A stretch of 59,696 nt of DNA, the filler included, from Sphacelaria rigidula (Eukaryota), in the NCBI GenBank assembly GCA_964200075.2. It is 7 parts of 7 records of this genome, joined end to end, with 100 filler letters (N's around TTAATTAATTAA, not from the genome) between each part and the next. Parts side by side here need not be neighbours in the genome. Positions count along the whole stretch, not along the records: positions 17,087 to 25,528 come from CAXNAA020011115.1; 6 more parts are not named here. One strand, given 5' to 3'. This document shows, in pieces, positions 18,310 through 55,170 of the stretch. Every line of letters begins with the position of its first letter. Position 1 is the stretch's first letter. Position numbers and translations under genes: made by a program. The notes under the pieces were generated by a model that saw only the letters and a list, made by a program, of their open reading frames with translations, was not told the DNA's origin and did no database searches.

Positions 18310-19177
18310 AGGTCTACCGCTCGAAGGGTCAACTAGCCTCTTATTATACTAGAAGCCAACGTGTCGCGTAACAATTTAAAAGGTGAATGTGACCTCGGTT
18401 CAAATGAATTGATCACTCTGAAACATATCTTCAACTCTCAATCTCACGAAAACGTTGTTTCTACTCAAAATTTGAGTAGATCGAGTATGATCTCCAATAA
18501 TACTCAACTCAAATATTGAGTAAGCACTCCCAGTAATACTTGTGTATAGGGTATCACTTGGGTATGGCTTCAACACTTCACTCAAATTTTGAGTAGATCG
18601 AGTACGGCCTCAAACACTCTACTCAAATTTCGAGTAGGTCGAGTACGGCCTCAAATAATCTACTCCATTTTTGAGTTGATCGTGTACGACCTCCACTACT
18701 TTACTCAAACATTGACGAAGCACTCTCAGCAATACTTGAGTATAAAGTATCACTTGGGTATGATAAGTATCCGTGACCGTCGGCGACTTCGTGACGTCAC
18801 TTCACAGACTATGTTGAATACATGGGCGAACGATGACCATCAATTAGGTGAGTGGCGGTACGCCGCGGGCTACAATAAGTACGAGCGAGTGATAGCCATC
18901 AAAACACAAAAAAGCGTGCAGGCGACTAAACCTGCCTGCCCCAGCTCCCCTGCCTCCAATCATGGCAGTGCATACTTGATACTATTCAACCCCTGCGATA
19001 TCACTTTCAGTATAAGCGCTACTCATCATCATTGAGTAATCGAGTAGACGGGTAGTCGGGTAGTTGTTATCGAAGTGAGCGACTCTACTGGCCGCATATG
19101 TGACTCCTCCATGGGAGACTCAGCGGTGGTACATCGGGTCTGGCCTCAGGTACTCTACCCAACTCTCAGGTGTTTGA
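18310..19177. mobile_element. Left part of a hAT-like element built of 40-bp TACTCAAATTTTGAGTA units, interrupted by the LTR retrotransposon
   Basis: Same unit as the 3794-4046 MITE and 24393-24693. No left TIR was found in this piece. Confidence 0.6.
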
Positions 19178-19384
19178 GGCACGGGGATTCTGGAGGATTC
19201 TGGGAGGATTCTGGATAATGACCGGGACACGGGGATGATACCTGGCGTGTCTAGAAGGTTGGTGCCTGGTAGGGCACTCCATGATGGTGAAATGTTGTGA
19301 AGGCTGACAACTGAAACTGAGGCCAGTAAGACTGGGGAGTCCCTCAACAGCAGTGATCCACCACTTCTTCTGGCTGGCGTCACA
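19178..19384 (+). repeat. 5' LTR, 5'-truncated
   Basis: Matches the 3' LTR from GGCACGGGGATTC to GGCGTCACA. The first ~60 bp of the 3' LTR are missing here. Confidence 0.9.
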
Positions 19385-19686
19385 ATATCGATATTAGTGC
19401 TAGTGTGAGTGCTAGAAATAGTACCTATCAAAACCTGCTGGAAGGATTTCGGCGGAGAGTCTGGCGGCTGAGGACAACCTGAAGCATCACGGACGCGTGA
19501 AGGGGGTTCAAGCTGATGGTAGCTGCAGAAAGGCGGCTGACCTGTGATTGATCCAGACTGGAGACTTGCTGAAGCTGCGTACAGCGGGAGTTTGGAGGCT
19601 CCTACGATTGTGTGATGCGGTGACGAAGCAAGGAAGTGTGAAATTCGCGAAGGTCCGCTGGCCTGCGAAAGGTTAGCACGTCCAGC

Positions 19687-20500
19687 GTGACGCCCGTGGT
19701 AATGTATGAAGAGTTGCGACCTGCCCAATACGGGGATAGGTACTCCGGAAGTGCATCTCGCACTTTCTATGCGAAGTACGCGGAGTGCAGTGAGCGTGTG
19801 GAGCACGCTAATGCAGGGGGTGCAGTGCGACACCAGGTAGTGTTGATGGCTCAACAAGTACCGATGTATGTGCAAAGAGTGTTTGCACGTGTGGAACATG
19901 AGAGCAAAATCACCCCGCCGCAATAGGTTGCGGCGATTAAAAAGCATGCTGGGCATGCAGCGGGCACTTGCCACTGTTGTGACCAGGTCAGCCATTACGC
20001 GCGCGATTGCTCAACGTCTTCCAGTGGAGAGTCTGGGTAGTCTCATACCGGGCGCCATCAGCATCGTCAGCACAAGGGCAAAATATGAGGTAAACAAGGT
20101 GGTGACGGCGGCGGATCCTCCGGCGGTGGAGGGTCGCAGTCGAGTTTTCAGCAGCTGCAGCAGCTGCAGCAGCAGCAGCAGGGGCAGCAGGGGCAGAGGC
20201 TTCAGCATGGGTCTGGTTCTGGGTCCGGCGCCGCTGTAGGTGCTGCTGCTCCGCAACGGGCGGTGCAGGTGGGACCGACTTCAGCAGTGTCGAACACTGC
20301 GCCGGCGCCGATGTTGGCGCCGGTGGCGACACCGGCGGCAGCTCCAGGCGCGACACTTGCTGATGCGCTGGTCGGAGGTTCGCCAAACCCTTGGTCTGCT
20401 GGCTGGGGGGCGTACCCGCCGGCGGTGCCGTTTGAACCTGCCGGAGCGTCTTCGCCTGCGCAGCTTGCGCAGCTTGCGCAGCTTGCGTAGCCGTGGCGTC
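19687..20500 (+). pseudogene. gag: gag remnant with an internal deletion between KKHAGHAA and the zinc knuckle
   Basis: Homologous to the gag at 53399-54607, which has several hundred extra bases between those two anchors. Confidence 0.75.
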
Positions 20501-20710
20501 AAGTAGGATTAGCGGCGCATCGGTCGGCGAATGGAGTGCCGGTGGAGTTTGCGGACAGATACATTCCTGCAGAGCTGTGTCTTCCAGATCAACGGGAGCG
20601 TAGAGCCATTGCGGTTCGTGCTCGGTGGGATTCTGGCACCCACTTGACGGGTCATGTGAGTTTGTCGGCACAGATTGTAGTGATGTCGGAGCGTCTACTC
20701 CCGGGTGTGC

Positions 20711-21164
20711 TGTTACAGATTTATTGGTCATGTTCCAGTCGACTGGGTTCCATTTGTCATACTTTGTCATGCTTGGTACCCGACGGGTCATACTACATTG
20801 TTTGATTGAATCCAGCTGCCTGCCCCCTTTGGGTCAGAGTCGTTTTGGACCATACATCTCAACTAGCAAAGCACAAGTTAGCCTGTACGCCAATAATACA
20901 AGAGCATCTACGCCATCACGGACTGCGATCTCAGAGGATTCTTTGGTCGTCACAAAATGTAAGCTTGACCTTCATGCAGCACATGTTGTGCTGCAGCCTG
21001 CGTGGTTCATGGCCTTCCACCTGACCACTGGTGCGGTGGTTGACTCGCACTTGATAATATCGAACTCAATGGTTTCGATACTTAGACTGTGTTTGGGTCT
21101 GCTAGCCCTGGTGCCCACTGAACTGGCATCTTCCTACCCAGGTCGCAAGTATCGTACCATGACA
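20711..21164 (+). mobile_element. Solo LTR (454 bp) inserted in the protease domain
   Basis: TGTTA...TGACA ends and a 4-bp TSD GTGC at 20707-20710 and 21165-21168. Removing it restores LPGVPLRIP (the second copy reads LPGEQIRIP). Homologous to 8810-9259. Confidence 0.9.
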
Positions 21165-21796
21165 GTGCCGCTGCGCATCCCGATTTCGCGCGGGGCGCGG
21201 CAGGCCGTCACCGCGTCGGGTCAGCATGTTTTAGTCACAGAGCGCACTGTTCCGCTGCAGCTGACTTTTACGACTCTCTGGGGACCGGCGCCGTTGCCTC
21301 CGATCTCGGTTGCGATCATGCCGGGGTCGGGTGGCGTCATTCTTCTGGAGTTGCCGACGCTTCAGGATCTTGGAGTCGACGCTCGGCGGTTGAACGACTC
21401 CATGAAAACTCGGATGTCTCCGCCTGGTCCACGCTTGGAGACGCCCCCCTTTTGAGGCAGTCGTCGCGTGAGCTTGTCGGTGGGTGTTTCTCAGGAGGCT
21501 GGGGAGCAGGTGACCGAGGAGCGGGATGCGGCGGTGGAATGCTTCTTAGAGCGCGGCCCGGAGATGGATATGGTTCCGGCGGAAGAAGAGTCTACTCGGA
21601 CGGTCGCGCTGGAGGAGAGCGTGACGGATGCTGTGGCGAGAGGCCTCAGCGTCTCAAAAGCGGAGCGCCTACGCGGCACATCGCATCGCCGCGTCAACGC
21701 GTTTCGTCGTGCGCTGCGGGGTGATCCCCCTGCACGCGTGGATCCCATGCGTGTTCAGCTAAACCCTGGGGCGTCCGCGGCGAAGACGAAGCCGCG

Positions 21797-24053
21797 GTGG
21801 TACGATCCACAGGAAAGTCGAGTTGGTTGGCGTCGTGCATGTCGGCTCTTTTGGCGCTCGGGTTGCTGTTACGGCACTTGCAGGCGGGGTGGTCCAGTCC
21901 GGATATGGCGGTTCCGAAGAAGGCTGCATCGTGGACGAAGGGCAGGCTGCAGGCGTGGGCAGCAGCGAAGGATCTGGCGGCTTATGCCGTGACGCTGTTC
22001 CATCCTCGTCCTGATTGACAGGTGCTCATATTTTCGGGTGCATCTGAGTGCCGCTGGGGTAGTTTTGTCACGCAGGTGCTTAAAGTTGAAATGCAAAGGC
22101 GCTTGCCGGTTGAGGATATGGCGCATGAACCGCTGGCTTTCCTCAGAGATAACTTCAAGGGTTCGCAGTTGTGTTGGGCCACAATTGGCGAGGAAAGTTT
22201 TGCTATCGTGAACACTTTTCGTCTTTTTGAGCATCTTTTGTGGGATGGCGTGCACATTTTCACGGATCACCGAAATGTCATGTATATTTTCAACCCGGAA
22301 GCGTGCGTTATGTCTGTGTCGAAGGCATTGGCACAACGTTCGGAGGGTTGGGAAGCTGTTCTTGGCCAGTATCGTTACTCGATTTGCCATATTTCGGGTG
22401 GCCGTCACGCGTGGGGTGACTTGCTTTCGCGTTGGGTGAATATTCCGGCTTTGCCTGCGTACGCTGTGGCCGTGTATGGTCCGTGTGAACCTGGTTACTC
22501 AATGCCGCCCAATTCTGTTGCCCGCCAAGCGCAACGAAAAGACCTTAGGGCCGAAGATGCGGATGTGCAATCTTTCGAGTCGGACGTTGGTACTGCTATC
22601 TTGGACAATAAAGGTCTGTTCCGTGTGCATGTGCGTGGCCGAAACGTTTTGTGGATCCCGAGTTCTGACAAGCAGTTGCAGGTACGTCTGATGATATGCG
22701 CGCACATTCGCGACCCCGGGCATCGTGGTGTGGCTGCGACGCTCGTGCGCTTGCAAGAGTATTGTGTCTGGCAGGGGATGAAAACTCATGTGCGCAAATT
22801 TTGTCCGCCAGTGTTTTCACTGTGCTGACTCGAGGGCGGGCGATGTTGTTCTCCGCCCGCTTGGCGAAACGGTCCATGGGCCTATGCCGTATGAAGCCGT
22901 TCATATTGACTTCTTGTACGTGGGCAAGAGTGGCCAGCTAGCTTCCCAAGGCTTGTCGGAGGATGCTGGGTTTGCATAAATTTCGGTAATCATGGATGAT
23001 TTGAGCAACTTTGTGTCTGTGGAACAAGGAGCAGTGTGTACTGCTGAATCGACTGCTGCATCTCTGCTGAATTGGTGCAAAACTTTGGGGGTGCCGCGTG
23101 TGTGGGTGAGTGATACCGCCGCGCATTTCAAGAATGCGATCTTGGCCCAATTGCGAGAGGCGTTGCACGTTGATCACCAGTTTGCGGTGGCGTATTCTCC
23201 GTGGTCTAACGGCACGTGCAAACGCATGATCAAGGAAGTAGTTCTCGCTCTTCGCTCTATTCTTCTCGAGCAGCGTAGAGCGATTTCCGAGTAGGTGGAC
23301 GTGTTGCCTGCGGTGCAATCGGTGCTCAATACAGCGTATCGTCGTCGTTACGATATTACGCCGTACCACGTGATGTTTGGTCGTGCTCCTTGGACGTCTT
23401 TCTCGGTGCTGGCGTTTTCGTCGGCGGGGGAATGGAAATGTGATGTTTTGGACGATGTTCAAACTGGGCGTGCATTGCAAGGAGTCTTGGACTTGCAAGA
23501 ACGTTTCCACGTTTAAGTGCAGGAACGTGTTGTCGCTGAACGTGCGCGTAGACGTGAGGGGTCCTCTTTGGGGCTGGAACTGCCGAATTTTGAGGTAGGC
23601 GACTATGTCTTGTACGCACACGTGCGTCGTCCGGGTGTTACGCCCAAGTTGATGGCGACGTGGACTGGTCCATGGAGAGTGGTTGGTGCTCACCATCCCC
23701 ACGTGTTTGAGATTCAGAACATTGTTTCAGGTTGTGTTCAGACCGCCCATGTAGATTGTTTGCGTTTTCATACAGACTCGCGGCTTAATGTTACGACTGA
23801 CGTTAAGGACGTGTTCCGGCATGCTTTCAATCAGGGGCAGATGGCTGGTATTGTCGGAGTGGCAGGAGCAGATGATCGTTCGTTGATCGTGTTGGCCAAC
23901 TGGGTTGGTTTCGAAGTTGAGGAGCGTACGTGGGAGCCTTTCAAGGATATTTTTGAGGCCGCTCCGGAATTTCGTACGAAGGACTTGCGTAAATTGCGCG
24001 TGACTCGTGCCGTTGCTACTCGCATTACGAGTGACTTTGGTATTCAGTCGTGA
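21797..24053 (+). pseudogene. pol: pol remnant: RT N-terminal stub fused in frame to connection/RNase H, then integrase and chromodomain
   Basis: WSSPDMAVPKK is followed directly by AASWTKGRLQAWAAAKDL...VTLFHPRPD. No DYR.LN, YxDD or FLG motifs are present. Confidence 0.88.
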
Positions 24054-24127
24054 CTTACTCGTCGTTTTGACATTTTTTATGTGTCAAGCTTGTTGATCGG
24101 TTTTCGTCCAACGCGCTTTGGGGGTGC

Positions 24128-24392
24128 TGTGATGAAAATACGCCGTTACGTTGAGTTGGTAGTGATAATTTGGAAAATGACTGGGGGCACGGGGATTCTG
24201 GAGGATTCTGGGAGGATTCTGGATAATGACCGGGACACGGGGATGATACCCGGCGTGTCTAGAAGGTTGGTGCCGGGTAGGGCACTCCGTGGTGGTGAAA
24301 TGTTGTGAAGGCTGACAACTGAAACTGAGGCCAGTGAGACTGGGGAGTCCCTCAACAGCAGTGATCCACCACTTCTTCTGGCTGGCGTCACA
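24128..24392 (+). repeat. 3' LTR (265 bp)
   Basis: TGTGATG...CGTCACA inverted termini after the PPT. Its 5' end resembles the LTR start of the second copy (TGTGGCGAAATCACGCCG). Confidence 0.92.
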
Positions 24393-24693
24393 GACCTCAA
24401 TACTCTACTCAAATTTTGAGAAGGCCGAGTACGGCCTTAAATACTCTACTCAATTTTAGTACTCAATTTTCGAGTAGATCGAGCACGATTTCCAGTACTC
24501 TACTCAAATATTGAGCAAGCGCTCTCAGTAATACCTGAGTATAGAGTATCACTTGGGTATGACCTCAATACTCTACTCAACATTTGAGTAGGTCGAGTAC
24601 CGCTTCAAATTCTCTACTCAAAATTTGAGTACTAAAAGTATGACTCTTCGAATATACTGTGTTATTGAGTATACTCTAGTCGACCTGCCCTTG
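24393..24693. mobile_element. Right part and right TIR of the hAT-like minisatellite element
   Basis: 40-bp units ending in TCGACCTGCCCTTG, as at 4033-4046. Confidence 0.8.
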
Positions 24694-24842: not shown

Positions 24843-25835
24843 TGCCCGGGTATGGTTGTCAACAACGTGGAACCGTTACAACTAGACCGTAGGCTGAGAT
24901 CGAGCTGACGCATGAACATGTGAGCACCCCACTCACTCACACAAACACACATGAGAGACCAAGCGCACCAAACGGCAGCTGTGCCGGCAGCCGCCTCCAC
25001 ATCAGCACCAGCTGCTTCTACACCAGCACCAGCTGCAGATGGTGGCCAGCAAACGTGTCAATGTGTACATGTCGGAGGGGAACCGTGGTTGATCAAGCCA
25101 GTTAGACATGATGCATACATGAAATAGCAGTAAAGCCTAAACCTTCAATGTGATGTGAAAGGGGTGAAAGCACCTTGTGGAGATTGTTATAATGGTGTTC
25201 ACTCCGAGATTGTTCCAGGTTCAGACCTCTGCGTACGTTGTTTGGTAACTCAGCTCAGCAGCGCAAGCTGATCCCAGTTGTTTCACAAAGGAGACAACGA
25301 GCAAATAATACAGACCAGAATAGCACACTTTTATCCAGCAGTTGATTGTATCCGAGCTTCATCTACAGCTCAGTTATAGCACACATTTGTAAAACAAACC
25401 GAAACAGGCCTAAGCTTTGATCAATAAAATACACCAGACAAAAACAGCAGCCCGACTACTGCTTTTTATCTCTGGGACTCACTTTCTCGAGGTCTGTAGA
25501 TACTCCAATGGGAAACTGGTGAATCTCANNNNNNNNNNNNNNNNNNNNNNNNNNNNNNNNNNNNNNNNNNNNTTAATTAATTAANNNNNNNNNNNNNNNN
25601 NNNNNNNNNNNNNNNNNNNNNNNNNNNNAAATAGCGAAGTCCATGGGTAAAAGGTTCCTTCCTGTCCTCTGGGGACAAAAAAAAAAAATCCTCTAGCAGT
25701 GTTCAACCCCTGTGGAGGGGTTTACTATTCCGCCTCCAGAGAGAGAGAGGCCTTTTCACCTCTGGAGCGGTAGATTTTCGTGTGGCGGGATTTTTGGGGG
25801 GTAGCCAAATGGCCGCGTGCGGAGGTCCTCTTTTC

Positions 25836-27592
25836 CAAGGTTGTGTTCTGTAGGGTCGGTGTTTCTGTATACCCGGGGTATTTTGCCGGGTATTTACCGT
25901 ACCCGACAGTTCTGTGACTTCTGTAAGACTTTCATACCGCTACCCGACAGTCCTGTAAACTCTGTAAGACTTCCACACCGTTACCCGATAGTGCTGTAAT
26001 CTCTGTTAGACTCCCAAACCGTTACCGGGGGGCACGGGTATCCTCTTGATAAGATACCCGATTGCGGGTACGGTTATCTGTGCAACCTCCATACCCTACC
26101 CGACAGTTTCTGTGAGTTCTGTAAGCCTCCAATACCCTTACCCGACAGGTCTGTGAGTTCTGTACGAAAACTTTACCCTAACCCGACGGGCGGGTATGCT
26201 CTTGGAGGATACCCGATTGCCGGTACCAGTTTTCTGTAAGCCTCCCATACCGTACCCTGCAAGTTCTGTGACTCCTGTAAGGCTTTCATCCAGTACCGGT
26301 ACCCGACAGTTCTGTGAGCTTTGTAAGTCTCCCATACCCCTACCCGGGGTTAGGGTATGCCGTTATAGATATACCTGATTGCAGGCATGAGCACAGGTAT
26401 ATACCTTGGAGAGGCACGGATACAGGTTCAATCCAAACACAACCTCATGACCTGATCATGTACCTCCCATCGATCAACCCACCCAAATCCATTCAAAACT
26501 GCACACCAATAATAATTAATGTTGAAAAGCTCTGTAGTTTGGGATCTGGCGGGATACGAGGTACCGCTGAGTGGAAACACGAAACATGAGCAGCACTGCA
26601 GACCGTCAGAATGGATCACCCCCAGACTCGACTGGTGAATCGCGCGGGGACGGTTCATCTGTGCCACGAAAGGATCGAGCAGCAAGACGCACGTCATCGA
26701 CGTTGATGGTGGTTGTGTCGTGGTTATCAAACCCCAGGCCGTTCTCGACATGTATGTACAGCACAGAGTAGGAGCCGCACCACCGGAAGTCGTCAAGACC
26801 GTCGGCGATTTTGTCGCATGCCGAACGGTTTCCAGAGAACGGGCAGCCGTGAATGCTCCTTCATGTACTCGCTGGAAGTGTACGTGAAGCCTATAGGTGT
26901 TGACGACCGCATGCGCATGTACTACTGCGATTGTTCGTGCAGTCTTTCTCTATCAACCCCGTGAAGCCGTTCAGAGTTTTCGTGAACTGCCATCTTCTGT
27001 ATTTCGCCACTGTTGTAGTGACGTAGGTCCCACCACAGGGGTGATGATGACACCAAGGTCGTGTTTTGTAGGGTGCGGGTTTTTTGTATACCCAGGGTAT
27101 TTTACTGGGTTTTTACCGTACCCGGCAGTTCTGTAAACTCTGTAAGACCTTCATACCCGTACCCGATAGTTATATCAGTTCTGTGGGCCTTCCGAAACGT
27201 TACCGGGGGGCACGGGTATGCTCTTGATAAGATACCCGGTTGCGGGTATGGTTATCTGTGCAACCTCCATACCCTACCCGACCGTTTCTGTGGATTCTGC
27301 AAGCCTCTCACACCCTTACCCGACAGTTGTGTGAGTTCTGCACGAAACCTTTAACCTAACCCGATGGGCAGGTATGCCCTAAAAGATTTACCCGATTGCC
27401 GGTACCGAATTTCTGTAAGCCTCCCATACCGCACCCGACAAGTTCTGTGACTTCTGTAAGACTTTCATACCGGTACCCGACAGTTCGGTAAACTGTGTAA
27501 GACTTTCATACCGATAACCGACGGTTCTGTAAGTTCTGGGAGGAATCTTATACCCTACAGAACGTACCCGTACCTTACAGAACACAACCATG
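25836..27592. mobile_element. Compound non-autonomous hAT-like element: left arm + ~630-bp non-repetitive core + complete MITE (27054-27592)
   Basis: TIR CAAGGTTGTGTTCTGTAGGGT at 25836, again at 27054, and inverted at 27572-27592. Perfect 8-bp TSD CTCTTTTC at 25828-25835 and 27593-27600. The arms are built of ~39-bp TACCCGACAGTTCTGTGA units. Confidence 0.88.
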
Positions 27593-33060: not shown

Positions 33061-33507
33061 ACAGCGTTAAACAGTCGAGAGCGACTGCGTCGTGGGTGCA
33101 CAAAAGTGGACTTCACGGTCGACGAGGGAAAGGAACTGCTGAACACCTCTCGTGATTGAAAAAATATGGCAAGCACCGCAGAAAAAAAGGCGGAGAACTA
33201 GAAAAGAAGTCCTTTGTTGGTCTTATATCTGTGTGACCCTGGCTGATGCGCCCGCACGGTGTAGCCTGGTGTCCAGAACCGATCGAGGGCTACTTACCGG
33301 CCGACGTTTGGTGTTTGTATATTGAAATTTTGTGTAGGCCCTCGCTAGGGCATAATTAACAAAACCTTGGGGGGTCTATCCAATGAGAAAGTGTTGATTC
33401 AGACTTTTTAGCAGATGGGCACCTTCCCCCTGATCAGACGATTACTACGATGTGATGATGATGACCCAACTCGTCTGTGTCGATGAGATATTGCTTCGAG
33501 AGCTTAA

Positions 33508-34170: not shown

Positions 34171-37100
34171 GGAGATCGCCGTCGATTTTATTGCACACCG
34201 AGTACTGTTCAGCGGCCAATCTCGGAACCTTGGAGCCAAGGGAATCTGAAAAGTGGGCTAGGCTCCTCTCTGTGGGGTGATGCAAAGTGTCCAAGACGTG
34301 TGTCGGCGGTTGTCCCTCTTTGAGCTCTATGAGGGTCAAAAAGTGGGTCAATCATCCTAAAAGTGAACAATCCGTGGTCCGAAAATCTATGTGCCATAAC
34401 ATCCGGCCTTACCATACTAAAACGCCCTAAACCAGTGAAAACAAAACACCAACGTGATTACGTGGTGGGGGTTTCACAAGCTGCGGTAGTACCGCCAGTT
34501 TGTTTCATGTGTTCCCATGTTGATTGTCGAATGAACGTTTGTTTGCGGGCCGCCGCTGTCCAACAGGGATACGCAGGTCGTAGGCGTGGTAGCGTTTGGA
34601 CCAGAGTGGATCGCGACGCGTGTAGTGAAAGTGGTCGGGTCCACAGACACTTTACCGCCGACAAGATCCGGACCGTGTTCTGGCAAGGTAAATTGGTCAG
34701 GATCGGCGGGGCTGACAGCAAAAACGGACGGGGGGTGATCCGCCGGTGGGTCACATTTTTCACCAGAAAGGTGGTGGACGGTATATGATTCCCAGGTGAG
34801 GCACGGGTAGACTTATCGTCAGCGATTTCGTAAATGACCCTCTTGGGTAGACAGGGATCAACATCCAAGGTGGACCCAGATTGTGCAATGTTAGGACCGT
34901 CGATTGAAGAAACAGTGGCGTCAGAAATATGTGAATTTGTTTCTTCCGGGATGCTTGATAAAGCCGTCGAGCGCAAAGTCGTCGCATTTTGGAGAGATTG
35001 AGGTCGAGGTTTTCCGCTCAAAAGAGGTGTGCGTGATGATGCGCGCGCTTCCTTGGGTAAACCTTTACGGGGCTTCCACTTTCGCCGTGACGATGGTCGG
35101 GGGACTTCCAAAACTTGTTGGGGCAACACAACTGCGTCCAGTCGTGTGGATGGGGTCAGCATCGGGGCATGCTCGGGCGAAGCTTGTGGACTTTCCGTCG
35201 GCAAGATTGGCTGAGGAGTCATAGCCAAGGGTAAATTGGGACGATTATTCTTGGAACCTATCAGGGGCAGTTTCGCGTTGTGTAATGAACGCGAAGAACG
35301 AACTCTTTCGGGCTGGGTGGGTGTTACTTGGCCCGAAGTGGTCAAATTGAGACCAGCGACACTTAACCCTTACACCGCGAGGTTAGTCTTCTGTTGAATC
35401 GGCATCAATTTCAAGTGAAAAAAGTATGCATGATCCAGAAAGATTAATCTCGCGGTCTAAGGGTTAAACCAGTGGAGTGAGATGCACTACTGCCTGCGCG
35501 TGCGGTCGCTGAGGGAAGCCTTTGTCTCAGGGACGGGCGGCTGGTGTTCCCACACCTCAGATTTACACTCAGTTCTGAAGGACCAAGTCCAGAGCCAAGC
35601 GTAGAGATAAGTCGTGAGTTCATGCAACTGTTACGCTGTATGCCAGGAGGTTAAGACGGGGGTCGATTTGAGCGGCCGTCATTAGTGCTCCTATCACGCT
35701 GTATGCGAGGAGGTGAAGACGGGGGTCGATTTGAGCGGCCGTCAGTAGTGCTCTTGCAAAATGCCGGGGAGACTGAGCGAGAATGTTTTGTCGCCAATTT
35801 GGGGGCTGTGATGAAAAAGTCTTCGAAACTGCTGTCGGCGGCGCCGAACACTTTAGGACGCCGACGTTGTCGCGTCATGGATCTAAGCGATCCGAAGTGA
35901 AGGTACCAGGAATTCTGGTGCTGGGGTTCGAGCTATGTGTCGGTCCCGTTCGCTGGTGTCTATCAGCGGAACCATGATTGGCGCGAGAAGTATTATCTCG
36001 TTGGCGAGTGCCAGAACTATGGTTGTTTTGTGTCGGCGCTCGCGATTAGAGTTATAGTTGCCGCGAGAATTCGAATGATGGCGATTATTACGACTTGGAG
36101 TTCGATAGTCGCGCATTCGTTTCTGCCATCGGCACCATGCGGGTTCATTGCTCTGTAGTTCGGAGTTCATGAGATCGAACGCATTTATGCATGAGTTGTC
36201 ACAGTCACGCATGCTGTGGCCTTGTACATTGTAATTGATACATTTGTTAGCGTGGCGGCTGAAAGCGTCGTGTCTAGCCGAAGAAGACAGAAGCAGGTTC
36301 CACAAATGGGGATCATCTGTCACAAAAGATGTTGTAGAAGTCGAATAAACATCGTCCCATGTCTCCTCAGAGTACGGGCATGCGTCAAAACTTGCGCAGA
36401 ATGGGTATTTGTTACTTCTAACACTCATGACTGAACTGGCGACAGAGGCGGGGGTCCATGTAGCACGAGATAAACTCGAATTCCGTCCGTGAGACCCATT
36501 GGTGTTCGCGGAGGAGAGAGGGGCAGGCTGTGAACGCGGAGACAAATATTTGTCACCCCGAATGGCGGGAGTGAGATTGCTTTCTTGATGGACAAAAGCT
36601 GTCCACATTGCGTCTACGGAGGCGTAAGGCACCTCGCGGTGTGCTTGGGCACCCGGAAATAACGACGGCATCAATGCCGGAAACTGCTCAGACACACTTG
36701 TACGGACGTAAGACTGACACATAGAATCAGAAGGCCCACTCTGGCGTCCAGTCCCCAAAGTGCTGGAAACCAACAACTTGAACTGACGAAAGTAGTCGGA
36801 AAAAGGCACGTCCGTAGCGACACCAAACGAACTTAGTCGCTGAATGGAGCTACCCTGGGTACTACGATCGAAATAGCCGGTCAAACGCCGCTCCGAATCA
36901 CTGAGTATCGTTGGGCCAGTTCGCCCCGAGGCAGGATCCGAATCCATCGCTGCGATGATCCCGTCGATGATCTGTGTCAGTGAAGAGGCAAGGTCAGGCG
37001 AGTGGCGAGAGATGGCGCGGTGCAGGGCCTTATGTAACGGCGTCTGCCAACCATCAACCCAAACAGGATCTTCGAACCGGTGAGCACCCGTGCGATCCGC

Positions 37101-38500
37101 TAACTGCAGAGTATTGTGTACAGTACCACGGATGGAGTGAGTACGAGGTAAACTGTCCTGAGCCTTCATTGTCCGCTGCGGATATGGTGTTAATATGCCA
37201 AAGTTTCTTGACATCGATCTGTATGTACTCTCTCTGGATAGCAACTACCCGAGCAGCCTCAGCCTTAGCAGCTGCTGCAGCCTCGCGGGCTGCGGTCTGT
37301 GCTTGGCTAGCCGCGGCGGCAGCTAAAGTGCGGGCCGAGGTCGAAGACAAAGGTCGATTTTTGTCATCAGCGTCAGATAAACCTAATAACTCGCGGGAAA
37401 CATCAGCTAAACGAGGGGTTTCTTGCCTGACATTGATAGAGTTGACTGACGGCGGATCAGTCGTTGACTCATTCCGGTGACGGGGATTGCGGGACGAGCT
37501 GTCCGACGAGCCAGATCCCGAACGTTTCCAGTTTGGGTGCTGTTTGCTGCGGACCGTCCGTCAAGAATTAGATCCTCGGCATCCGCCACCGGAGGATCCG
37601 GAACCGTCGCGGCGACCCTCGCGCCCGCCACCCTGGCGGTCATCATTGTCGTCGTTGTCGTTGTGTGGCCGACAGTTTGCGATGATCGGAGTCCATCCGT
37701 CGTCGTCATTGTCGTAGTCGTCGTCAGCGGAGGTGCCGGTCTGAAACGCGCTCCGTAAATCTTGCAAAAGGCTATGGGCGGCTCTGTTGTAGGTATCGGC
37801 ACCATCATTGGGGCCCGTTTGCGCGTGTGCCACAAGCTGGGCGATCGTCAGAGCATGCGGATCTGCCACCAGAAGTTGAGCGCCTTGGTCCAGATATAGA
37901 CCCAAGGCAACTAAAACCCGATGGTAGACGGGAGTCCACGCGGCCTTGGAGCTTTGCAGGCGGTTATCCACCGAAACGTCGGCGGAGAAATCTCACACAG
38001 TATGCACGAGCCAAGTGGCCTCGTGAGAGGAGAGAGACAGGCAGGGTTCGCCCGCGGTCGTCGCGCCAGGGCTGGCGGCTTCCGATGTTCGGGGTATGCG
38101 GTACCCCGCGAATGGCGAAGATGCCGCGCCCAATGGTGAGAGAGCCTGAAGCGACGTCGCGCGCGCCCGAGCGGCCTGATGGTCTGACAGTAAAGTCGTC
38201 GCGGACGCAGCATGCTCAGCGGTCCGAGTAATGTGGGCGACCAGCTCCTCCGTCTTACGTTTACTGGCTGCTACGGCCGTTTGGTGTTCCGCGTGAGCCC
38301 GAAGGGCAGCGGAGTGGGCGGCGGTGGCGGTAGTGGCGTTTCGTTGCAGGTTAACCTGCCTGGTGTTGAATTCCTCCCGGAGGAGGCGAACCGCGTTCTC
38401 GTCAGCAGTGCTGGCATTGGGAATATCCCGCGATGTCGGAGCCAGGGTGGTAGCCTTAAGAGTCGATGCCGGAGTTGTGGTCGGCGGCACCAAGCTTCAT
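34171..38500 (-). mobile_element. Degenerate Ty3/gypsy-type gag-protease region of a different family; pol would lie beyond the linker
   Basis: 453-aa ORF 35883-37244 with a degenerate knuckle KCINYNVQGHSMRDC, and aspartic protease motif LLDSG at ~34550-34565. Frameshifts present; the upstream boundary is approximate. Confidence 0.7.
35367..35463. mobile_element. 97-bp piggyBac-like mini-MITE inserted in the retroelement
   Basis: TTAA|CCCTTACACCGCGAG...CTCGCGGTCTAAGGG|TTAA with an intact TTAA TSD. Confidence 0.9.
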
Positions 38501-44553: not shown

Positions 44554-45782
44554 CGGGGATAGCCGGAGTTCTTCCAGGGTATACCGGGTCGATTTGTGGA
44601 GGGGGAGGGGGGTCATCAACCGTCCTGAGTGCAAAACAGGATATCTGTCGCTTCAGTTTTTTCGTGTTCCACGAGTATTCTGGCCACCCGTGAAATGATT
44701 GACTTTTAATGTGTCGTTTTCTGTTCCTTTCTTTCTTTTTTGTTTTTTATTATTCTGTTCTATTTTTGCTGCTCCTGACCACGGGCTGGAGTGTTGCAAT
44801 CAGCTAATGTGAGATAATCAATCGATCAATCAATCAATGTATGTCGGTCCTTATCCGCCGGGATATGAAATCACGATCGAAAATGATGAAGAAAAATGTG
44901 AACAAAAAGGCGAAAAAAAGCGGAAAAAGAAAGAACAAAATACGTAAGATTCCGGGGCTAGAAAAAAACCCAGCGATATCGGGGCTCGAACCCGCGTCTA
45001 CAAACGTGAAAGTAGGCACTTGCTATGTGCATTATTAGGTCCGTGTCGGCCACTCGTTTCGGTCCAGAGTGGTAAATATTTATCAACATGTAGTGTATTG
45101 TAGCGTAGTGCGGTGTGGTGTAGTGTAGTGTAGTGTAGTGTAGAGCAGTCTAGTGTTGCATAGTGTACTGCACTATGACAGTAGTGCACCGTCCCGGACA
45201 ATGTACGGCGTACTGCGGTATAGGTTATAGCTCTGGCCTGCACTTTATACCCCTGTCATGTACGATGCTGCTTGTTTTAGGATAGGGCAATGAACGACCA
45301 TTGACTGCACTGTGAAACGAAGCGGTGCCCTATCCTACTCTACCGAAATAATGCACCATACACGTATGCATCGTGCTCTACATTTCAGTACCGCACTGCG
45401 GGGACTCCGCACATCACGGAGGGGGGGACGCTTCGAAGCCATCCCCGGTACCTTCCATCCATTTTTTCTTCTTTTTTTTCCCAATTCCCAAGTGCCTTCA
45501 GTGTTTGATAACACTTGTTTCTTTTTCAATGGCATGTCCGTCAACGTCTCATGTTATTTTGTTTTTGTGAAACCAGCCACTTATTTCTGGCCACCCGTGC
45601 CTATTTCTTTCGGTCCAGAGTGGTATGTATCTGTTTGGTGGAAAAGGGGACGAGCCCTCAACGAGCACAGGCGGGGAATTTAACCCCCTCGTAGGCGGTG
45701 GTACGACCATGTATTCACAGTTCTGTCGCATTTTGACTCTTCCATCGCTATCTGACATTTTGTATGCGCGTGAACGGCCCAG

Positions 45783-45993
45783 GAAACTTCGGGGAAAATT
45801 CGACTTTTCCGAGGCAAACGTGGCGTTGGTGCCCAGTGTGCCGGGCAAGCACCGGGACGAACATCTTTATAAGTACGGGCACATGCGAGTGCGGAAGCTG
45901 CTGCGCAAAGAGGAGATTCTGGGGGTCCGTGAGCCGAAGACGCACAAGATTGCGTTTCAAGTGGCGAGTTTGGCCAACGTTTCTCGGAAACCG
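45783..45993 (+). CDS. TDP1: Tyrosyl-DNA phosphodiesterase 1, internal exon
   Basis: FDFSEANVALVPSVPGKH....KYGHMRVRKLL...IAFQVASLA matches the TDP1 signature DFS...LIASVPG.H...GH..L...Q.SS.G. Acceptor cccag| and donor CCG|GTGAGT. Confidence 0.85.
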
Positions 45994-46208
45994 GTGAGTG
46001 ACTGGGAAAGTATGGCGGTATGGTCCATTTTAGTATCTGTAGCAAGCCGAAGGCTAGAATTGTTTTTTTGTTTTTGTGCTGGACATATATATAGGTATAT
46101 ATAGGCGTGTGTACGTGTATGAACATATGCAAAATAAATAGTAGCGTCGGTGGTATCACTGGTACGGGATAAAAAACAGTCAGGAGGGAAAGTTGAGGGT
46201 TCGATATC

Positions 46209-51154: not shown

Positions 51155-51254
51155 NNNNNNNNNNNNNNNNNNNNNNNNNNNNNNNNNNNNNNNNNNNNTT
51201 AATTAATTAANNNNNNNNNNNNNNNNNNNNNNNNNNNNNNNNNNNNNNNNNNNN

Positions 51255-54200
51255 CTAAACATGCGGGTGATGACCTCCAACCACTCTCCACGGACCAGTC
51301 CACGTCGCCATCAATTTTGGCGTAGCTACCGGGCGACGCACACGTGAATATAAAACGCAATCGCCTACTTCGAAATTCGGTCAGCCCCGACGAAGACCCC
51401 TCACGTCTACGCGCACGTTCAGCTGCAACACGCTCCTGCATTTGAACGTGGAAACGTTCTTGCAAGTCCAGGATTCCTTTCAATGCACGCTTAATTTGAA
51501 CATCGTCCAGAACATCACACTTCCATTCCCCCGCCGACGAGGACGCCAGCACCGAGAAAGACGTCCGAGGGTCACGTCTAAACATCACGTGATACGGCGT
51601 ACTACCGTACCGACGGCGATATGCTGCATTTAGCGCCCATTGCACAGCGGGCAACACGTCCACCCACTCGGTCACCTCTCGACACTGCTCGAGAAGAATT
51701 GAGCGAAGAGCACGAACTACTCCCTTTACCATGCGTTCGCACGTACCGTTCGACAACGGAGAATACGCTACCGCAAACCAATGATCAACGCGCAAAGCCT
51801 CTCGCAATCGAGCCGAGATCGCATTCTTGAAATGCTTGGCGGTATCACTCACCCACACACGGGGCACCCCCAAAGTTTTGCACCGGTTCAGCAAAGACGT
51901 AGCAATCGATTCAGCAGTGGTACATACGGCTACTGGTTCCAGAGCCACAAAATTTCTCAAATCATCCATGATTACCAAAATGTATCGGAACCCCGCATCC
52001 TCCGACAAACCTTGGGAAGCTAGCGGGCCACTCTCGCCCACGTGTAAGAAGTCAAAATGAACGACTTCATTCGGCGTGGTCCCATGGACCGTTTCGCCGA
52101 ACGGGCGGGGAACAAAACCGCCCGCCCTGGAGTCAGCACAGTGAAGACACTGGCGGACAAATTCGCGCACATTAGTTTTTATCCCCTGCCAGACACGAAA
52201 CTCTTGCAAGCGCACGAGCGTCGCAGCCACACCACGATGTCCGGCATCGCGCATGTGCGCACAAATCATCAAACGTACCTGCAACTGCTTGTCAGAACTC
52301 GGAATCCACAAAACGTTTCGGCCACGCACATGCACACGAAACAGACCTTCATTGTCCAAGATAGCAGTACCAACGTCCGACTCGAAAGATTGCACATCCG
52401 CATCTTCGGCCCCAAGGTCTTTTCGTTGCACTTGGCGGACAACAGATTTAGACGGCATCGAGTCATCAGGTTCGCACGGACCATACACAGCCACAGCGCG
52501 CGTAGGCAAAGTGGGAATATTCACCCAGCGCGATAGCAAGTCACCCCACGCTTTACGCTCACCCGAAATATGACAAATCGTGTAACGATGCTGTCCTAAT
52601 ACACCTTTCCACCCCTCCAATCGCTGTGCCAACGCCTTCGATATAGACGTTACGCATGCCTGCAGGTTGAAAATGTACGCTGGATTTCGGGGATCCGTTT
52701 AAATGTGTACACCGTTCCACAATAAATGCTCAAGACGACGAAAAGTGCTCACGATAGCAAAATCTTCCTCGTCAATTTTTTCCCAACGCATCTGTAAATC
52801 CTTAAAATAACCACTCAGAAAAGCCGGCGGTTCATGCGTCATGTCTTCGACCGGCAACCGTTGTTGCATTCTTGCATCAGGCACCTGCGTTACACAACTA
52901 CCCCAATGGCACTGAAATGCATCCGGAAACATTGACACCTGACAATCTGGACAAGGATGGAACAGCGTTACTGCATCAGCCACCAGATCCTTCGCTGCCC
53001 CCCACGCCTGCAGCCTGCCCTCCGTCCACGATGCAACCTTCTTCGGAAACGCATTATCCAGACTGGAATCGTACACTCCGTCACATTAATACGTTGCCTC
53101 GATGCGGTGATGACCTGCCGCGCCCCGAGCGAAAACGGAATTCGGATTTGCTCACCGGGGAGCAGACGCTCCAGCATCTCCACAATTACCACTGACATTC
53201 TCGTGAAGTGGGCGCCTGAATCCAACACAGCTTTGACCGAAATCGCTCTCCGCGCCCGTTGATCGGGAAGATATAACTCGGCAGGGACATAATTGTCTTG
53301 GTCCTCGACCGGCACCTGCTCCACCGACTGATTGTTCGTAATCCCCACTTGACGCCACGGCTGCGCTCGCGGCGCAGGCATAGACGCCCCCGCTGGGGTC
53401 ACCGGCACCGCCGGCGGGTACGAAGCTCCGCCCGCAGAACCAAATTGCAGCGGTACCCCGGCCGGCGCAGCAGCGGATTCAAATTTAGCTGAAAACCGGC
53501 CGGCTCCGCAGCCGGCGTCTCGCCTTGCTCTGCTGCCGGCGGCGCCGGCACCGAGCCCGACACTAGAGAGGTGGGTCCCACCTGCGCCGTCCGTTGCGGA
53601 GCAGCAGCCCCTGCGGCTGAACCGAAACCAGAACCGGACCCCTGCTGACGCCGCTGCCCCTGCTGCTGCTGCTGCTGCTGCTGCTGGGAAGTCGACTGTG
53701 CACCTCCACCGCTGGAGGATCCGCCACCGCCGCCGCCGCGACTACCTCGTATTTTCCCCTTGTAAGGGCGCGCGGCACTCGTCTTCCCAGACTCCGGCGT
53801 TTGGCAATTTCGTGCGATATGACCGACCTGGCCACACTGAAAACCAGTAAAATTGGAGGCGGAACTGCCTGCGGATTTTGGTCCGCGGTTACGCAGGCTC
53901 CAAGACTGTGGCGATGAAGTGGATGATTTTCCGAACACTTCGACCCGCCGCCATGCCTGAGCTTCGGCCACCACCGTATCCATGACTAAATACGGGTCCG
54001 ACTTCCAATTTGTCTCGTGCTGTAACTGTACCAGCACGGTCTGCTTAAATTCCGCCGGGGCCAGACCCTCCACCATCACTTTAGTAACCACCGCAGCGGG
54101 CCCTGGGCCAAATTTCCCATCGGACGAACGATAAATCATCTCTACGTTGGGATTTTCAGCAAAATACGTTTCCAACTTACCCATCATGGGCTCCACCTTC

Positions 54201-55170
54201 TCACGCATGGTCCTCCCCTTGTGGTTCATTGCGACAGCCTTTGCCACTGCCCCGGACGCCGGAGTAAGCTCTACCTCCGCGCCTGCCGCATGCCCTGCGT
54301 GCTTCTTTATCGCTGTGGCCAACTGCAGCGGCGTTGTGGTATGCTTTTCATGGAACCGCCTCGCGAAGACGCGCTATATGGGTGTTGGTATTAAGTGCGC
54401 CATCGAAACCACCTGATGCCTCACCGCACCCCCTGCATTCGCATGCTCCACCCTCCTTTTGTATTTCAAGCAGTTCGTGTCAAACGATCTGAAGGCACCC
54501 TCAGAATACAAACTCCCCTAACTGGGCGGCCGCAACTCTTCCCTTAGAACGACTGGGGTTACGGTTGTTTCCGCTGGCTCTATTACCAGGACCTCCGTGG
54601 TCGACATTCTTGAGCGGAAAATCGAAGATTTCTTAAAACCTCCTCGAACTTCAGATCACCTGCTGTCTTCGCCACTCCAACACAGCCCTGGGGTCGTATA
54701 AACACCCGCTGTACGCAGCGTCAGCAAGTCTCCAGTCTGGATCAATCACGGGCCAGCCGCCTTTGCAGCTGCCTCAGCTTGAAGCCTCCTCACGCGTCCG
54801 TGAAGCCCTGTGCCCCGAAGCTAATCACTAGTTTTCAATACTTTCCCTGCTAAACGTTTTAGCAGTCTCAAACGATAGCATCTACTAGCACGCCAGCACT
54901 AGCACTAATATCGATATTGTGACGCTAGCAGGTTTGCTAGTACTGCAGCGNNNNNNNNNNAGAAGACCATTGTCTAATTTCTTTTTAGTGACTCCCCAGC
55001 TCTTCTGGCCTCAAGGTCTCAGTTGTCAGCCTTTCGGAGTGAAACCCCTGCAGCCCTACACCATCTGGCCCGCTACACAGCAAGGGCCATCATCCACAGG
55101 ATGCCCTTGTCCCCTGACCATCATCCAGGATTCACGATATGCTCAACCGTGTCGGCGTGATTTCGCCACA
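51255..55170 (-). mobile_element. Second RT-less Ty3/gypsy copy: 5' LTR-gag-partial PR-(RT deleted)-RNase H-IN; 3' end cut by the linker
   Basis: LTR 54918-55170 (TGTGGCG...CGTCACA); gag with FQCGQVGHIARNC; LDSG; junction FPKK|VASWTEGRLQAW; 477-aa frame with HHCC, HFDF, VSD and SNGTCER. An extra deletion runs from the protease to the RT stub near 53065. Confidence 0.93.
54918..55170 (-). repeat. 5' LTR (contains a 10-N gap)
   Basis: Shares termini and the core AAGGCTGACAACTGA.AC..TGAGGCCAG....CTGGGGAGTC with 24128-24392, otherwise diverged. Confidence 0.85.

Follow-up and report, generated by a model that had tools for sequence, protein, structure and literature searches.

An amplified Ty3/gypsy derivative without the reverse transcriptase core in Sphacelaria rigidula, whose reading frame appears to have been kept

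Introduction

Can a Ty3/gypsy element that has lost the core of its reverse transcriptase (RT) spread as a form of its own, and what does such a form still encode? This question is raised by two element copies in a window of 59,696 nucleotides from Sphacelaria rigidula (assembly GCA_964200075.2), which is the whole stretch of DNA that was analysed. An earlier note on this window claimed that both copies share one in-frame deletion of roughly 200 or more RT residues, that the RT-less form itself was amplified, and that it borrows RT in trans and still supplies its own Gag, protease (PR), RNase H (RH) and integrase (IN).

Results

The RT deletion joint

In copy 1 (+ strand), the frame across the joint reads WSSPDMAVPKK/AASWTKGRLQAWAAAKDL with the junction at 21922/21923 (±1 nt), as located by comparison with RT-bearing relatives, and in copy 2 (- strand) it reads FPKK/VASWTEGRLQAWGAAKDL at 53038/53037, an identical joint by alignment to copy 1. 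Both junctions are as the earlier note had written them, and alignment of one copy to the other gives 84.9% from 21893 on. When 30 RT-bearing loci of the same genome were examined, both sides were located in 28, where the gap was 687 nt in 18 and measured 680-731 nt in the remaining 10. The removed stretch comprises 229 codons (DSFRLVSDY...RVIP, residues 722-950 of the protein relative P0002), which is the entire RT core and agrees with the number of missing residues that had been estimated. It covers the Pfam domain RVT_1 (P0002 718-871) except for the first residues, as well as the thumb, and its 3' end lies just ahead of RT_RNaseH_2. The joint is identical in 61 of 62 RT-less copies and 1 nt shorter in the other one.

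As the earlier note had anticipated, RVT_1 gave no match in 19 ORFs of the window or in three junction-spanning ORFs of other loci, and tblastn detected no remnant of the RT core in the window or in the 62 RT-less loci. Splicing was ruled out, since GT-AG ends are missing from the removed stretch on both strands. Microhomology at the joint does not exceed 1 nt, and a TTCCG motif near both ends, considered as a cause of the deletion, was rejected because it fails to match the joint. The claim that the frame runs into RNase H in both copies holds for the joint itself, but the protease of copy 2 is thrown out of frame by a private deletion.

The two copies in the window

Copy 1 belongs throughout to the B-type of the two RT-bearing subfamilies described below. 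Its 5' LTR (19178-19384), of which the 5' ~50 nt are absent, ends in GTCACA and is 97.6% identical to the 3' LTR over 207 nt. The primer-binding position (19385-19403) shows no TGG and contains a 10-nt palindrome followed by short GCTAGT repeats, as in most copies. The N-terminal part of Gag (19681-20010) is fused in frame to the zinc knuckle by a shared 423-nt deletion at 19965/19966. The protease region (20540-21400, catalytic Asp codon at 20629) was placed by alignment, the Pfam match of Asp_protease_2 on relatives being weak, and it is split by a 458-nt insertion (20706-21164) with TG...CA ends and a GTGC duplication, which is presumably a solo LTR of another family; a 71% relative of this insertion lies at 8810-9259.

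Downstream, sequence comparison places an N-terminal RT stub ending in W.SP..VPKK at 21700-21922, followed by a B-type RNase H (21923-22430; Pfam RT_RNaseH, E 3.7e-9) with a premature stop at 22016-22018. The integrase region (22700-24053), supported by Pfam and alignment, includes the HHCC motif and the DDE positions 22908/23112/23220, is frameshifted, and ends with a stop at 24051-24053. The chromodomain (~23898-23969) that had been reported for copy 1 is indeed matched, but weakly (E 0.043). A short G-rich tract and the 3' LTR (24128-24392, found by LTR match) occupy 24119-24392. Besides the shared deletions, copy 1 carries stops and frameshifts. As well, it is embedded in a 41-nt tandem repeat array (18460-18760 and 24393-24640).

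Copy 2, also on the - strand in all its parts, has an A-type backbone. Its 5' LTR (54918-55170), with a 10-N gap inside, was typed as A, and is followed by a full-length A-type gag (53400-54560) whose zinc knuckle at 53845 is matched by Pfam zf-CCHC. Only the N-terminal half of the protease aligns (53068-53340, Asp codon at 53222), which ends at the private deletion (53068/53067) of ~643 nt compared with the closest relative, L178; this deletion reaches from mid-protease to 30 nt before the joint and puts the protease out of frame with RNase H. RNase H and integrase (51255-53037; Pfam RT_RNaseH_2, Integrase_H2C2 and rve) are ended by an assembly gap (N at 51211-51254), and the 3' LTR is not visible.

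The parent family

A genome search with the RVT_1 profile (best 150 of 2794 candidates) missed the parent, as the 50 RT loci fetched were only 22-26% identical in RT. The parent was instead reached via homologous proteins: a junction-spanning natural ORF led to the RT-bearing protein relatives P0001 and P0002, with up to 82% identity, and the RT of these relatives served as a query for which the best 150 of 2070 candidate genome matches were scored. According to Pfam on P0001 and P0002, the parent is a single-ORF chromodomain Ty3/gypsy element with the domain order Gag-PR-RT-RH-IN, and RT-bearing genome copies map along P0002/P0025 in the same order. The family is characterized by LTRs of ~250 nt (TGTGAC...GTCACA) and 4-bp target duplications, and its RT-bearing copies are ~5.8-5.9 kb long.

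The sequence after the 5' LTR is conserved between RT-less and RT-bearing copies and is without TGG in both, and a single fold of it showed nothing clear with regard to self-priming. A short G-rich tract precedes the 3' LTR, in which the purine tract amounts to only ~5 G. An Ectocarpus protein (P0007) matches 60% of the length of the RT-less ORF with 57% identity. A junction-centred protein search (three matches among 1204 candidates) gave no RT-less protein elsewhere, which weighs little as evidence, and P0059 represents a different, partial RT loss.

Copy number and retrotransposition

A 20-mer across the joint is found at 250 genome sites (control 0), and a degenerate 20-mer for the start of RT at 181 (control 4), both counts being rough lower bounds; these are the numbers of junction copies and RT-containing copies whose comparison the earlier note had proposed. 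With the junction as query, 40 of the 40 best-scored matches (of 507 candidates) span the joint, and all 30 that were fetched are in frame at it. A query from upstream only, which is biased to RT-less copies, found the joint in 30 of 30 fetched loci, and its last ten matches included seven with the joint, two with RT and one left unexamined.

The RT-less copies are ~12% apart and have distinct flanks. LTR pairs were compared among 38 RT-less loci fetched at length together with copy 1, and in 29 RT-less copies the pairs are 2.0-17.1% diverged, with a median of 8.4% from which L148, whose repeat pair is not the LTRs of the element, was omitted; the corresponding value for six B-type RT-bearing copies is 9.2% (p 0.63). 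Among 18 copies with both ends, 11 show exact 4-bp target duplications, all of them distinct, four show one mismatch and three show two. Because the copies possess their own LTR pairs and distinct 4-bp target duplications, the RT-less form itself was amplified by retrotransposition, as had been claimed. Shared flanking DNA or a lack of read support would have spoken against this claim; instead, flanks and target duplications are distinct, and the joint occurs in contigs of three public runs (X1, X2 and X3), which are DNA-type and may include the source sample of the assembly. In a presumed-RNA public run, the RT-deletion joint was absent among the joints listed, with 38 more beyond that list.

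Probable helper subfamilies and recombination

The RT-bearing copies fall into subfamilies A and B, which are ~23% apart near RT, and the helpers with matching LTRs that the earlier note called for have counterparts in both. All 62 RT-less copies examined are B-type over the 500 nt that surround the joint, and the deletion therefore arose once, in subfamily B. Away from this core, A-type sequence is present in RT-less copies, namely in 6/61 just upstream of the junction core, in 15/60 at the start of the protease and in 11/25 in RNase H, and some copies are A-type on both sides of a B-type junction island. The LTRs are A-type in 6/29 RT-less copies, plus copy 2, and their best matches to RT-bearing copies are 74-93% identical. 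The "different LTRs" formerly noted for the two copies in the window do differ, and they are those of the two helper subfamilies, B-type in copy 1 and belonging to the A backbone in copy 2.

Crossovers of this kind require two RNAs in one particle, as known from retroviral biology. The same co-packaging has been argued for cattle endogenous retroviruses, according to the available part of that study (PMC10924933). The mosaic A/B copies thus suggest that the RT-less RNA was co-packaged with both subfamilies and would have used both of them as helpers. Helpers were identified here by recombination, not by expression, and the sample comprised no more than 11-12 B and 28 A copies, with a bias to best matches.

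Subfamilies A and B share one integrase pool, and net dS between them is 0.31 upstream vs 0.05 (0.049) in integrase. The RT-bearing copy L170 (G000:C1547) possesses the Gag deletion and its own target duplication, and a Gag-less RT-bearing form may also be mobile. L143, L145, L167, L174, L202, L204, L206 and L182 are among many copies with insertions of ~250-265 nt, the LTR size of the family, which are possibly nested solo LTRs.

Further shared deletions and retained domains

Mapped along one natural RT-bearing copy as a ruler, several additional deletions are shared among RT-less copies. A 423-nt deletion removes 141 codons of the Gag core in 34 of the 47 copies covering the region, as well as in one RT-bearing copy, so that the N-terminus of Gag runs in frame into the zinc knuckle. 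Three of the four catalytic residues of RNase H are gone with a 354-nt deletion in 33/62, the integrase C-terminus and chromodomain are gone with a 675-nt deletion in 6/48, and a frameshifting deletion of 271 nt lies within the integrase C-terminus in 4/41. All four combinations of the Gag and RH deletions are present (20/14/7/4). The Gag core, RNase H and the integrase tail are thus dispensable. A stop-free stretch of at least 600 codons was found in 5/62 RT-less copies. The remaining catalytic residues are mostly intact, including the protease Asp in 46/59 and the integrase Asp, Asp and Glu in 48/55, 50/55 and 44/54, respectively, as expected for recent derivatives.

Selection on the encoded protein

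Counts are given as nonsynonymous:synonymous, with codon frames taken from open natural copies; the regional tallies were made without ruler positions 1360-1790 (low complexity) and column 2221 (alignment artefact), and copy 2 was analysed apart. Changes private to single RT-less copies number 2267:673, with 121 stops, and represent decay after insertion. Variants in at least seven RT-less copies number 107:157 overall. In pol, such variants number 56:94 when shared with RT-bearing copies, and 44:23 (plus 6:1 fixed) when they are the lineage's own, and the latter differ strongly from the helper variation of 61:243 (p 2e-14). Around the joint, the own variants (in at least seven RT-less copies and nearly absent from RT-bearing ones) number 28:5 vs 16:52 in helpers (p 5e-9) and are not distinguishable from private decay (p 0.22). 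After A-type Gag was added and a stricter filter applied, which inflates the ratio by favouring transversions, own changes number 44:5, with zero stops among the 49. An apparent constraint in Gag (own 4:26) was discarded, because it disappeared with the addition of A-type Gag.

From the protease to the 5' part of RNase H, net dN/dS from subfamily B is 0.81 in 19 Gag- and RH-deleted copies and 0.48 in 12 RH-intact B-type copies, and it is 0.20 between A and B. In Gag-deleted copies, the own changes of the protease number 10:0, and a Leu next to the catalytic Asp has become Trp in 31 copies. The protease, RT stub and RNase H stub drifted neutrally, with a dN/dS of about 0.8 from the protease to the 5' part of RNase H. 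Past the RH joint, a net dN/dS of 0.19 was obtained. For integrase, both synonymous and nonsynonymous divergence are low, and in its tree RT-less copies are intermingled with A copies, so recombination refreshes this domain and masks any constraint of its own.

Selection on the reading frame

Shared indels were defined as those in at least four copies, with ruler errors set aside. From gag to the integrase core, 13 are in frame and one is a frameshift, vs 4 and 15, respectively, in non-coding parts (p 6e-5); the single frameshift is a 1-nt loss in a T run, found in four unrelated copies. Eight of the 13 probably come from the helper subfamilies. The other five (-687, -423, -354, +9 and -3) either have no counterpart in RT-bearing copies or occur there solely in the Gag-deleted copy, and all five are in frame. 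For comparison, 10/25 large private indels (deletions of at least 30 nt) and 39/157 small ones are in frame, so the joint chance of five in-frame events is 0.002-0.004, and that of the three large ones alone 0.04-0.06, for five events picked after seeing the data in a quarter of the copies, of which the two small indels (+9 and -3) might derive from unsampled helpers.

Stops in at least three copies affect Trp, Gln and Arg-type codons and occur in copies unrelated to one another, with the exception of one pair of close relatives sharing a stop late in the integrase core, just after the catalytic Glu. The shared truncations all begin after this Glu. These observations suggest, with due caution, that the element has kept an open frame from Gag through the integrase core rather than functional enzymes, and they hint at a need for translation in cis.

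Discussion

A probable defective-interfering derivative with its frame apparently kept

The best explanation, to which we assign a probability of about 0.6, is that the RT-less form is a defective-interfering derivative of a chromodomain Ty3/gypsy family, helped in trans and with its frame kept. In the proposed course of events, the single 687-nt deletion, which arose once in subfamily B, was probably caused by a template jump during reverse transcription. The shorter RNA, retaining both LTRs, the leader and the purine tract, would have been packaged in particles of RT-bearing relatives, then copied and integrated, with RT and particles presumably supplied in trans. Over a long period, the RT-less form outgrew its helpers and shed the Gag core, the RNase H core and the integrase tail. 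With about even odds, the frame would have been kept since the RNA needs translation in cis for stability or for reaching assembling particles, similar to what is reported for mouse IAP 1-delta-1.

A more specific form of this explanation, which we hold tentatively and at slightly below an even chance, is a parasite selected for frame alone: ribosomes would run from Gag to the integrase core, the protein would drift, RT, the Gag core and RNase H would be shed in successive in-frame cuts, and crossovers on both sides would bring the deletion into a second helper subfamily. Against the best explanation stand the five events chosen post hoc, the probable helper origin of eight of the 13 in-frame indels and the recognition of helpers through recombination. 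In addition, net dN/dS in the RH-intact B-type subfamily is 0.48, not 1, and defective Ty1 elements are reported, in the part of the source available, to be as mobile as intact ones with no cis preference (PMC3945221).

Alternative explanations

A splicing product, an assembly artefact or a segmental duplication might be considered, since both spliced RNA and a collapsed repeat would produce an exact joint that recurs, and the assembly is fragmented (27,214 contigs, 244 Mb). The chance of this is negligible, since the removed stretch lacks GT-AG ends on either strand, the copies are ~12% apart with distinct flanks and are separated by distinct target duplications, and the joint recurs in contigs of three public runs. 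The earlier proposal that the RT-less element takes RT alone from elsewhere and itself makes functional Gag, protease, RNase H and integrase draws on catalytic residues being the majority state, on high-frequency variants being mostly synonymous (107:157, vs 2267:673 private) and on the net dN/dS of 0.19 downstream of the RH joint. However, nearly all of the synonymous excess is variation common with RT-bearing copies (pol 56:94, vs own 44:23), the Gag signal did not persist after the inclusion of A-type Gag, 34/47 copies lack the Gag core and 33/62 the RNase H core, and the protease accumulated own changes of 10:0 in Gag-deleted copies, including the Leu to Trp beside its catalytic Asp. The same note had named dN/dS below 1 as its check and values near 1 on RT-less branches as refuting, and the 0.81 from the protease to the 5' part of RNase H in the Gag- and RH-deleted subfamily comes near the latter. 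Self-supply of these four proteins is therefore quite improbable and was not upheld.

Alternatively, integrase, or a fusion of Gag, zinc knuckle and integrase, could be the sole product needed in cis, the frame being kept only for it. The HHCC and DDE core of integrase is untouched by every shared deletion, the zinc knuckle stays in frame despite the Gag deletion, and in the Gag- and RH-deleted subfamily none of the own changes falls in the 221 codons of the integrase core, vs 30 nonsynonymous ones in 339 codons upstream. But synonymous divergence in integrase is also near zero (net dS 0.002-0.010), and the helpers themselves differ little there (dS 0.049 vs 0.31 upstream), which lets recombination explain the low divergence. 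Own integrase changes across all copies number 6:2, as for neutral ones, and spread has continued in copies without the integrase C-terminus and chromodomain, among which the lowest LTR divergence was measured, leaving this explanation unlikely. Hardly different in probability, and also unlikely, is a passenger RNA without useful translation, whose in-frame deletions arose by luck and were fixed in a few well-transcribed masters. It fits the neutral drift of the protein sequence and the chance of 0.04-0.06 for three large in-frame deletions, and many non-autonomous families hold only decayed coding remnants, as stated in the part of PMC13570524 available. On the other hand, the chance falls to 0.002-0.004 with the two small indels, zero stops occur among 49 lineage-specific codon changes at seven or more copies, and the only cluster of shared frame-breaking changes lies beyond the integrase core.

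Comparison with known systems

The family described here agrees with trans-complemented deleted retroelements, as one joint is present at many independent insertions, with competent relatives, matching LTRs and mosaics. The non-coding interior of TRIM and LARD elements is not found, given the Pfam matches to RNase H, integrase and the zinc knuckle, and neither is the pattern of TR-GAG and Quinta (Gag kept; RT, RH and IN absent), as integrase is present and 34/47 copies have lost the Gag core. BARE-2 has lost Gag and thereby contrasts with the RT-less family. The distinction from TRIM, LARD and TR-GAG made in the earlier note is thus true, yet endogenous retroviruses offer known cases of shared pol deletions that were amplified.

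A close likeness is to mouse IAP 1-delta-1, whose fusion protein is said to act in cis and which, in the available part of PMC6466679, is described with a shared internal deletion, one open gag-pol fusion frame, a need for proteins in trans and full-length elements that are out-competed. It differs in being a mouse endogenous retrovirus with one 1.9-kb deletion and experimental proof, whereas the RT-less family is Ty3/gypsy, carries three successive in-frame deletions and is known from genome sequence alone. Similarly, in SERV-K/MER11, deletions are shared and stacked (32, 60, and 31 with both) and were spread by co-packaging (PMC11379458), HERV-H shows shared pol deletions (PMC6629862), and in cattle ERVK[2-1-LTR] D-type elements, defective forms dominate and recombine with competent ones (PMC10924933). 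These three are mammalian retroviruses, and the portions of their descriptions available mention neither a cut limited to the RT core nor a kept frame; a further difference is that, in the RT-less family, the deletion has entered a second helper subfamily as well.

Among plants, non-autonomous LTR elements that retain coding remnants include TR-GAG, RLG_Quinta/Sabrina and 15 sugar beet families with partly decayed pol, and the available sections of these studies (PMC13570524 and PMC11302176) describe, as here, a partial coding region, an autonomous partner and module shuffling. In TR-GAG and Quinta, according to the same sections, Gag is kept and RT and integrase are lost, whereas in the RT-less family the losses began with RT, integrase has persisted and the Gag core can be dispensed with. 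Among Ectocarpus elements, ECR-1 shares a single gag-pol ORF with chromodomain, LTRs of ~270 bp and a 4-bp target duplication; compared by layout only and from the accessible part of PMC12477816, it is 6.6 kb long and centromeric, and the RT-bearing form of the present family is ~5.8-5.9 kb long and distributed over hundreds of contigs. The curated Ectocarpus table, as far as that source was available (PMC12477816), lists no RT-less gypsy family and gives the subfamily Gypsy-6b as 'only integrase domain'. An RT-less, integrase-keeping family with a deletion of the RT core only was not found in the literature searched, the coverage of which was incomplete, with Repbase and most subscription journals outside it.

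If the interpretation of defective interference holds, dynamics known from mammalian endogenous retroviruses would also run in algal Ty3/gypsy elements, with a defective form that exceeds its helpers in number and uses two of them. Selection on frame alone, if true, would mean that the cis effect of IAP 1-delta-1 has a natural parallel, on the scale of a genome, in a stramenopile Ty3/gypsy element. With its many copies, the family also offers a natural system in which to ask whether non-autonomous retroelements need translation in cis, as selection on frame and on protein are separable here. RT-based annotation and dating would miss most of the RT-less family, and a pooled dN/dS would falsely imply working proteins, because recombination keeps importing helper variation.

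Other features of the window

A distinct 41-nt array is located at 25835-27544 (25.9-27.5 kb), with 3794-3999 noted alongside, which is of interest given the layout shared with the centromeric ECR-1. On the - strand, 34458-38496 holds long ORFs of 453, 303, 168 and 167 aa without a Pfam match, with repeats at 33503/35362 and 28938, and may, as a guess, be another decayed retroelement, for example of the DIRS/Ngaro type. An 854-codon open frame rich in Q, G and S at 4029-6593 (-) is probably a large host exon. Finally, we also identified an exon at 45571-46104 (+) with a match to tyrosyl-DNA phosphodiesterase (PF06087, E 5.7e-12).
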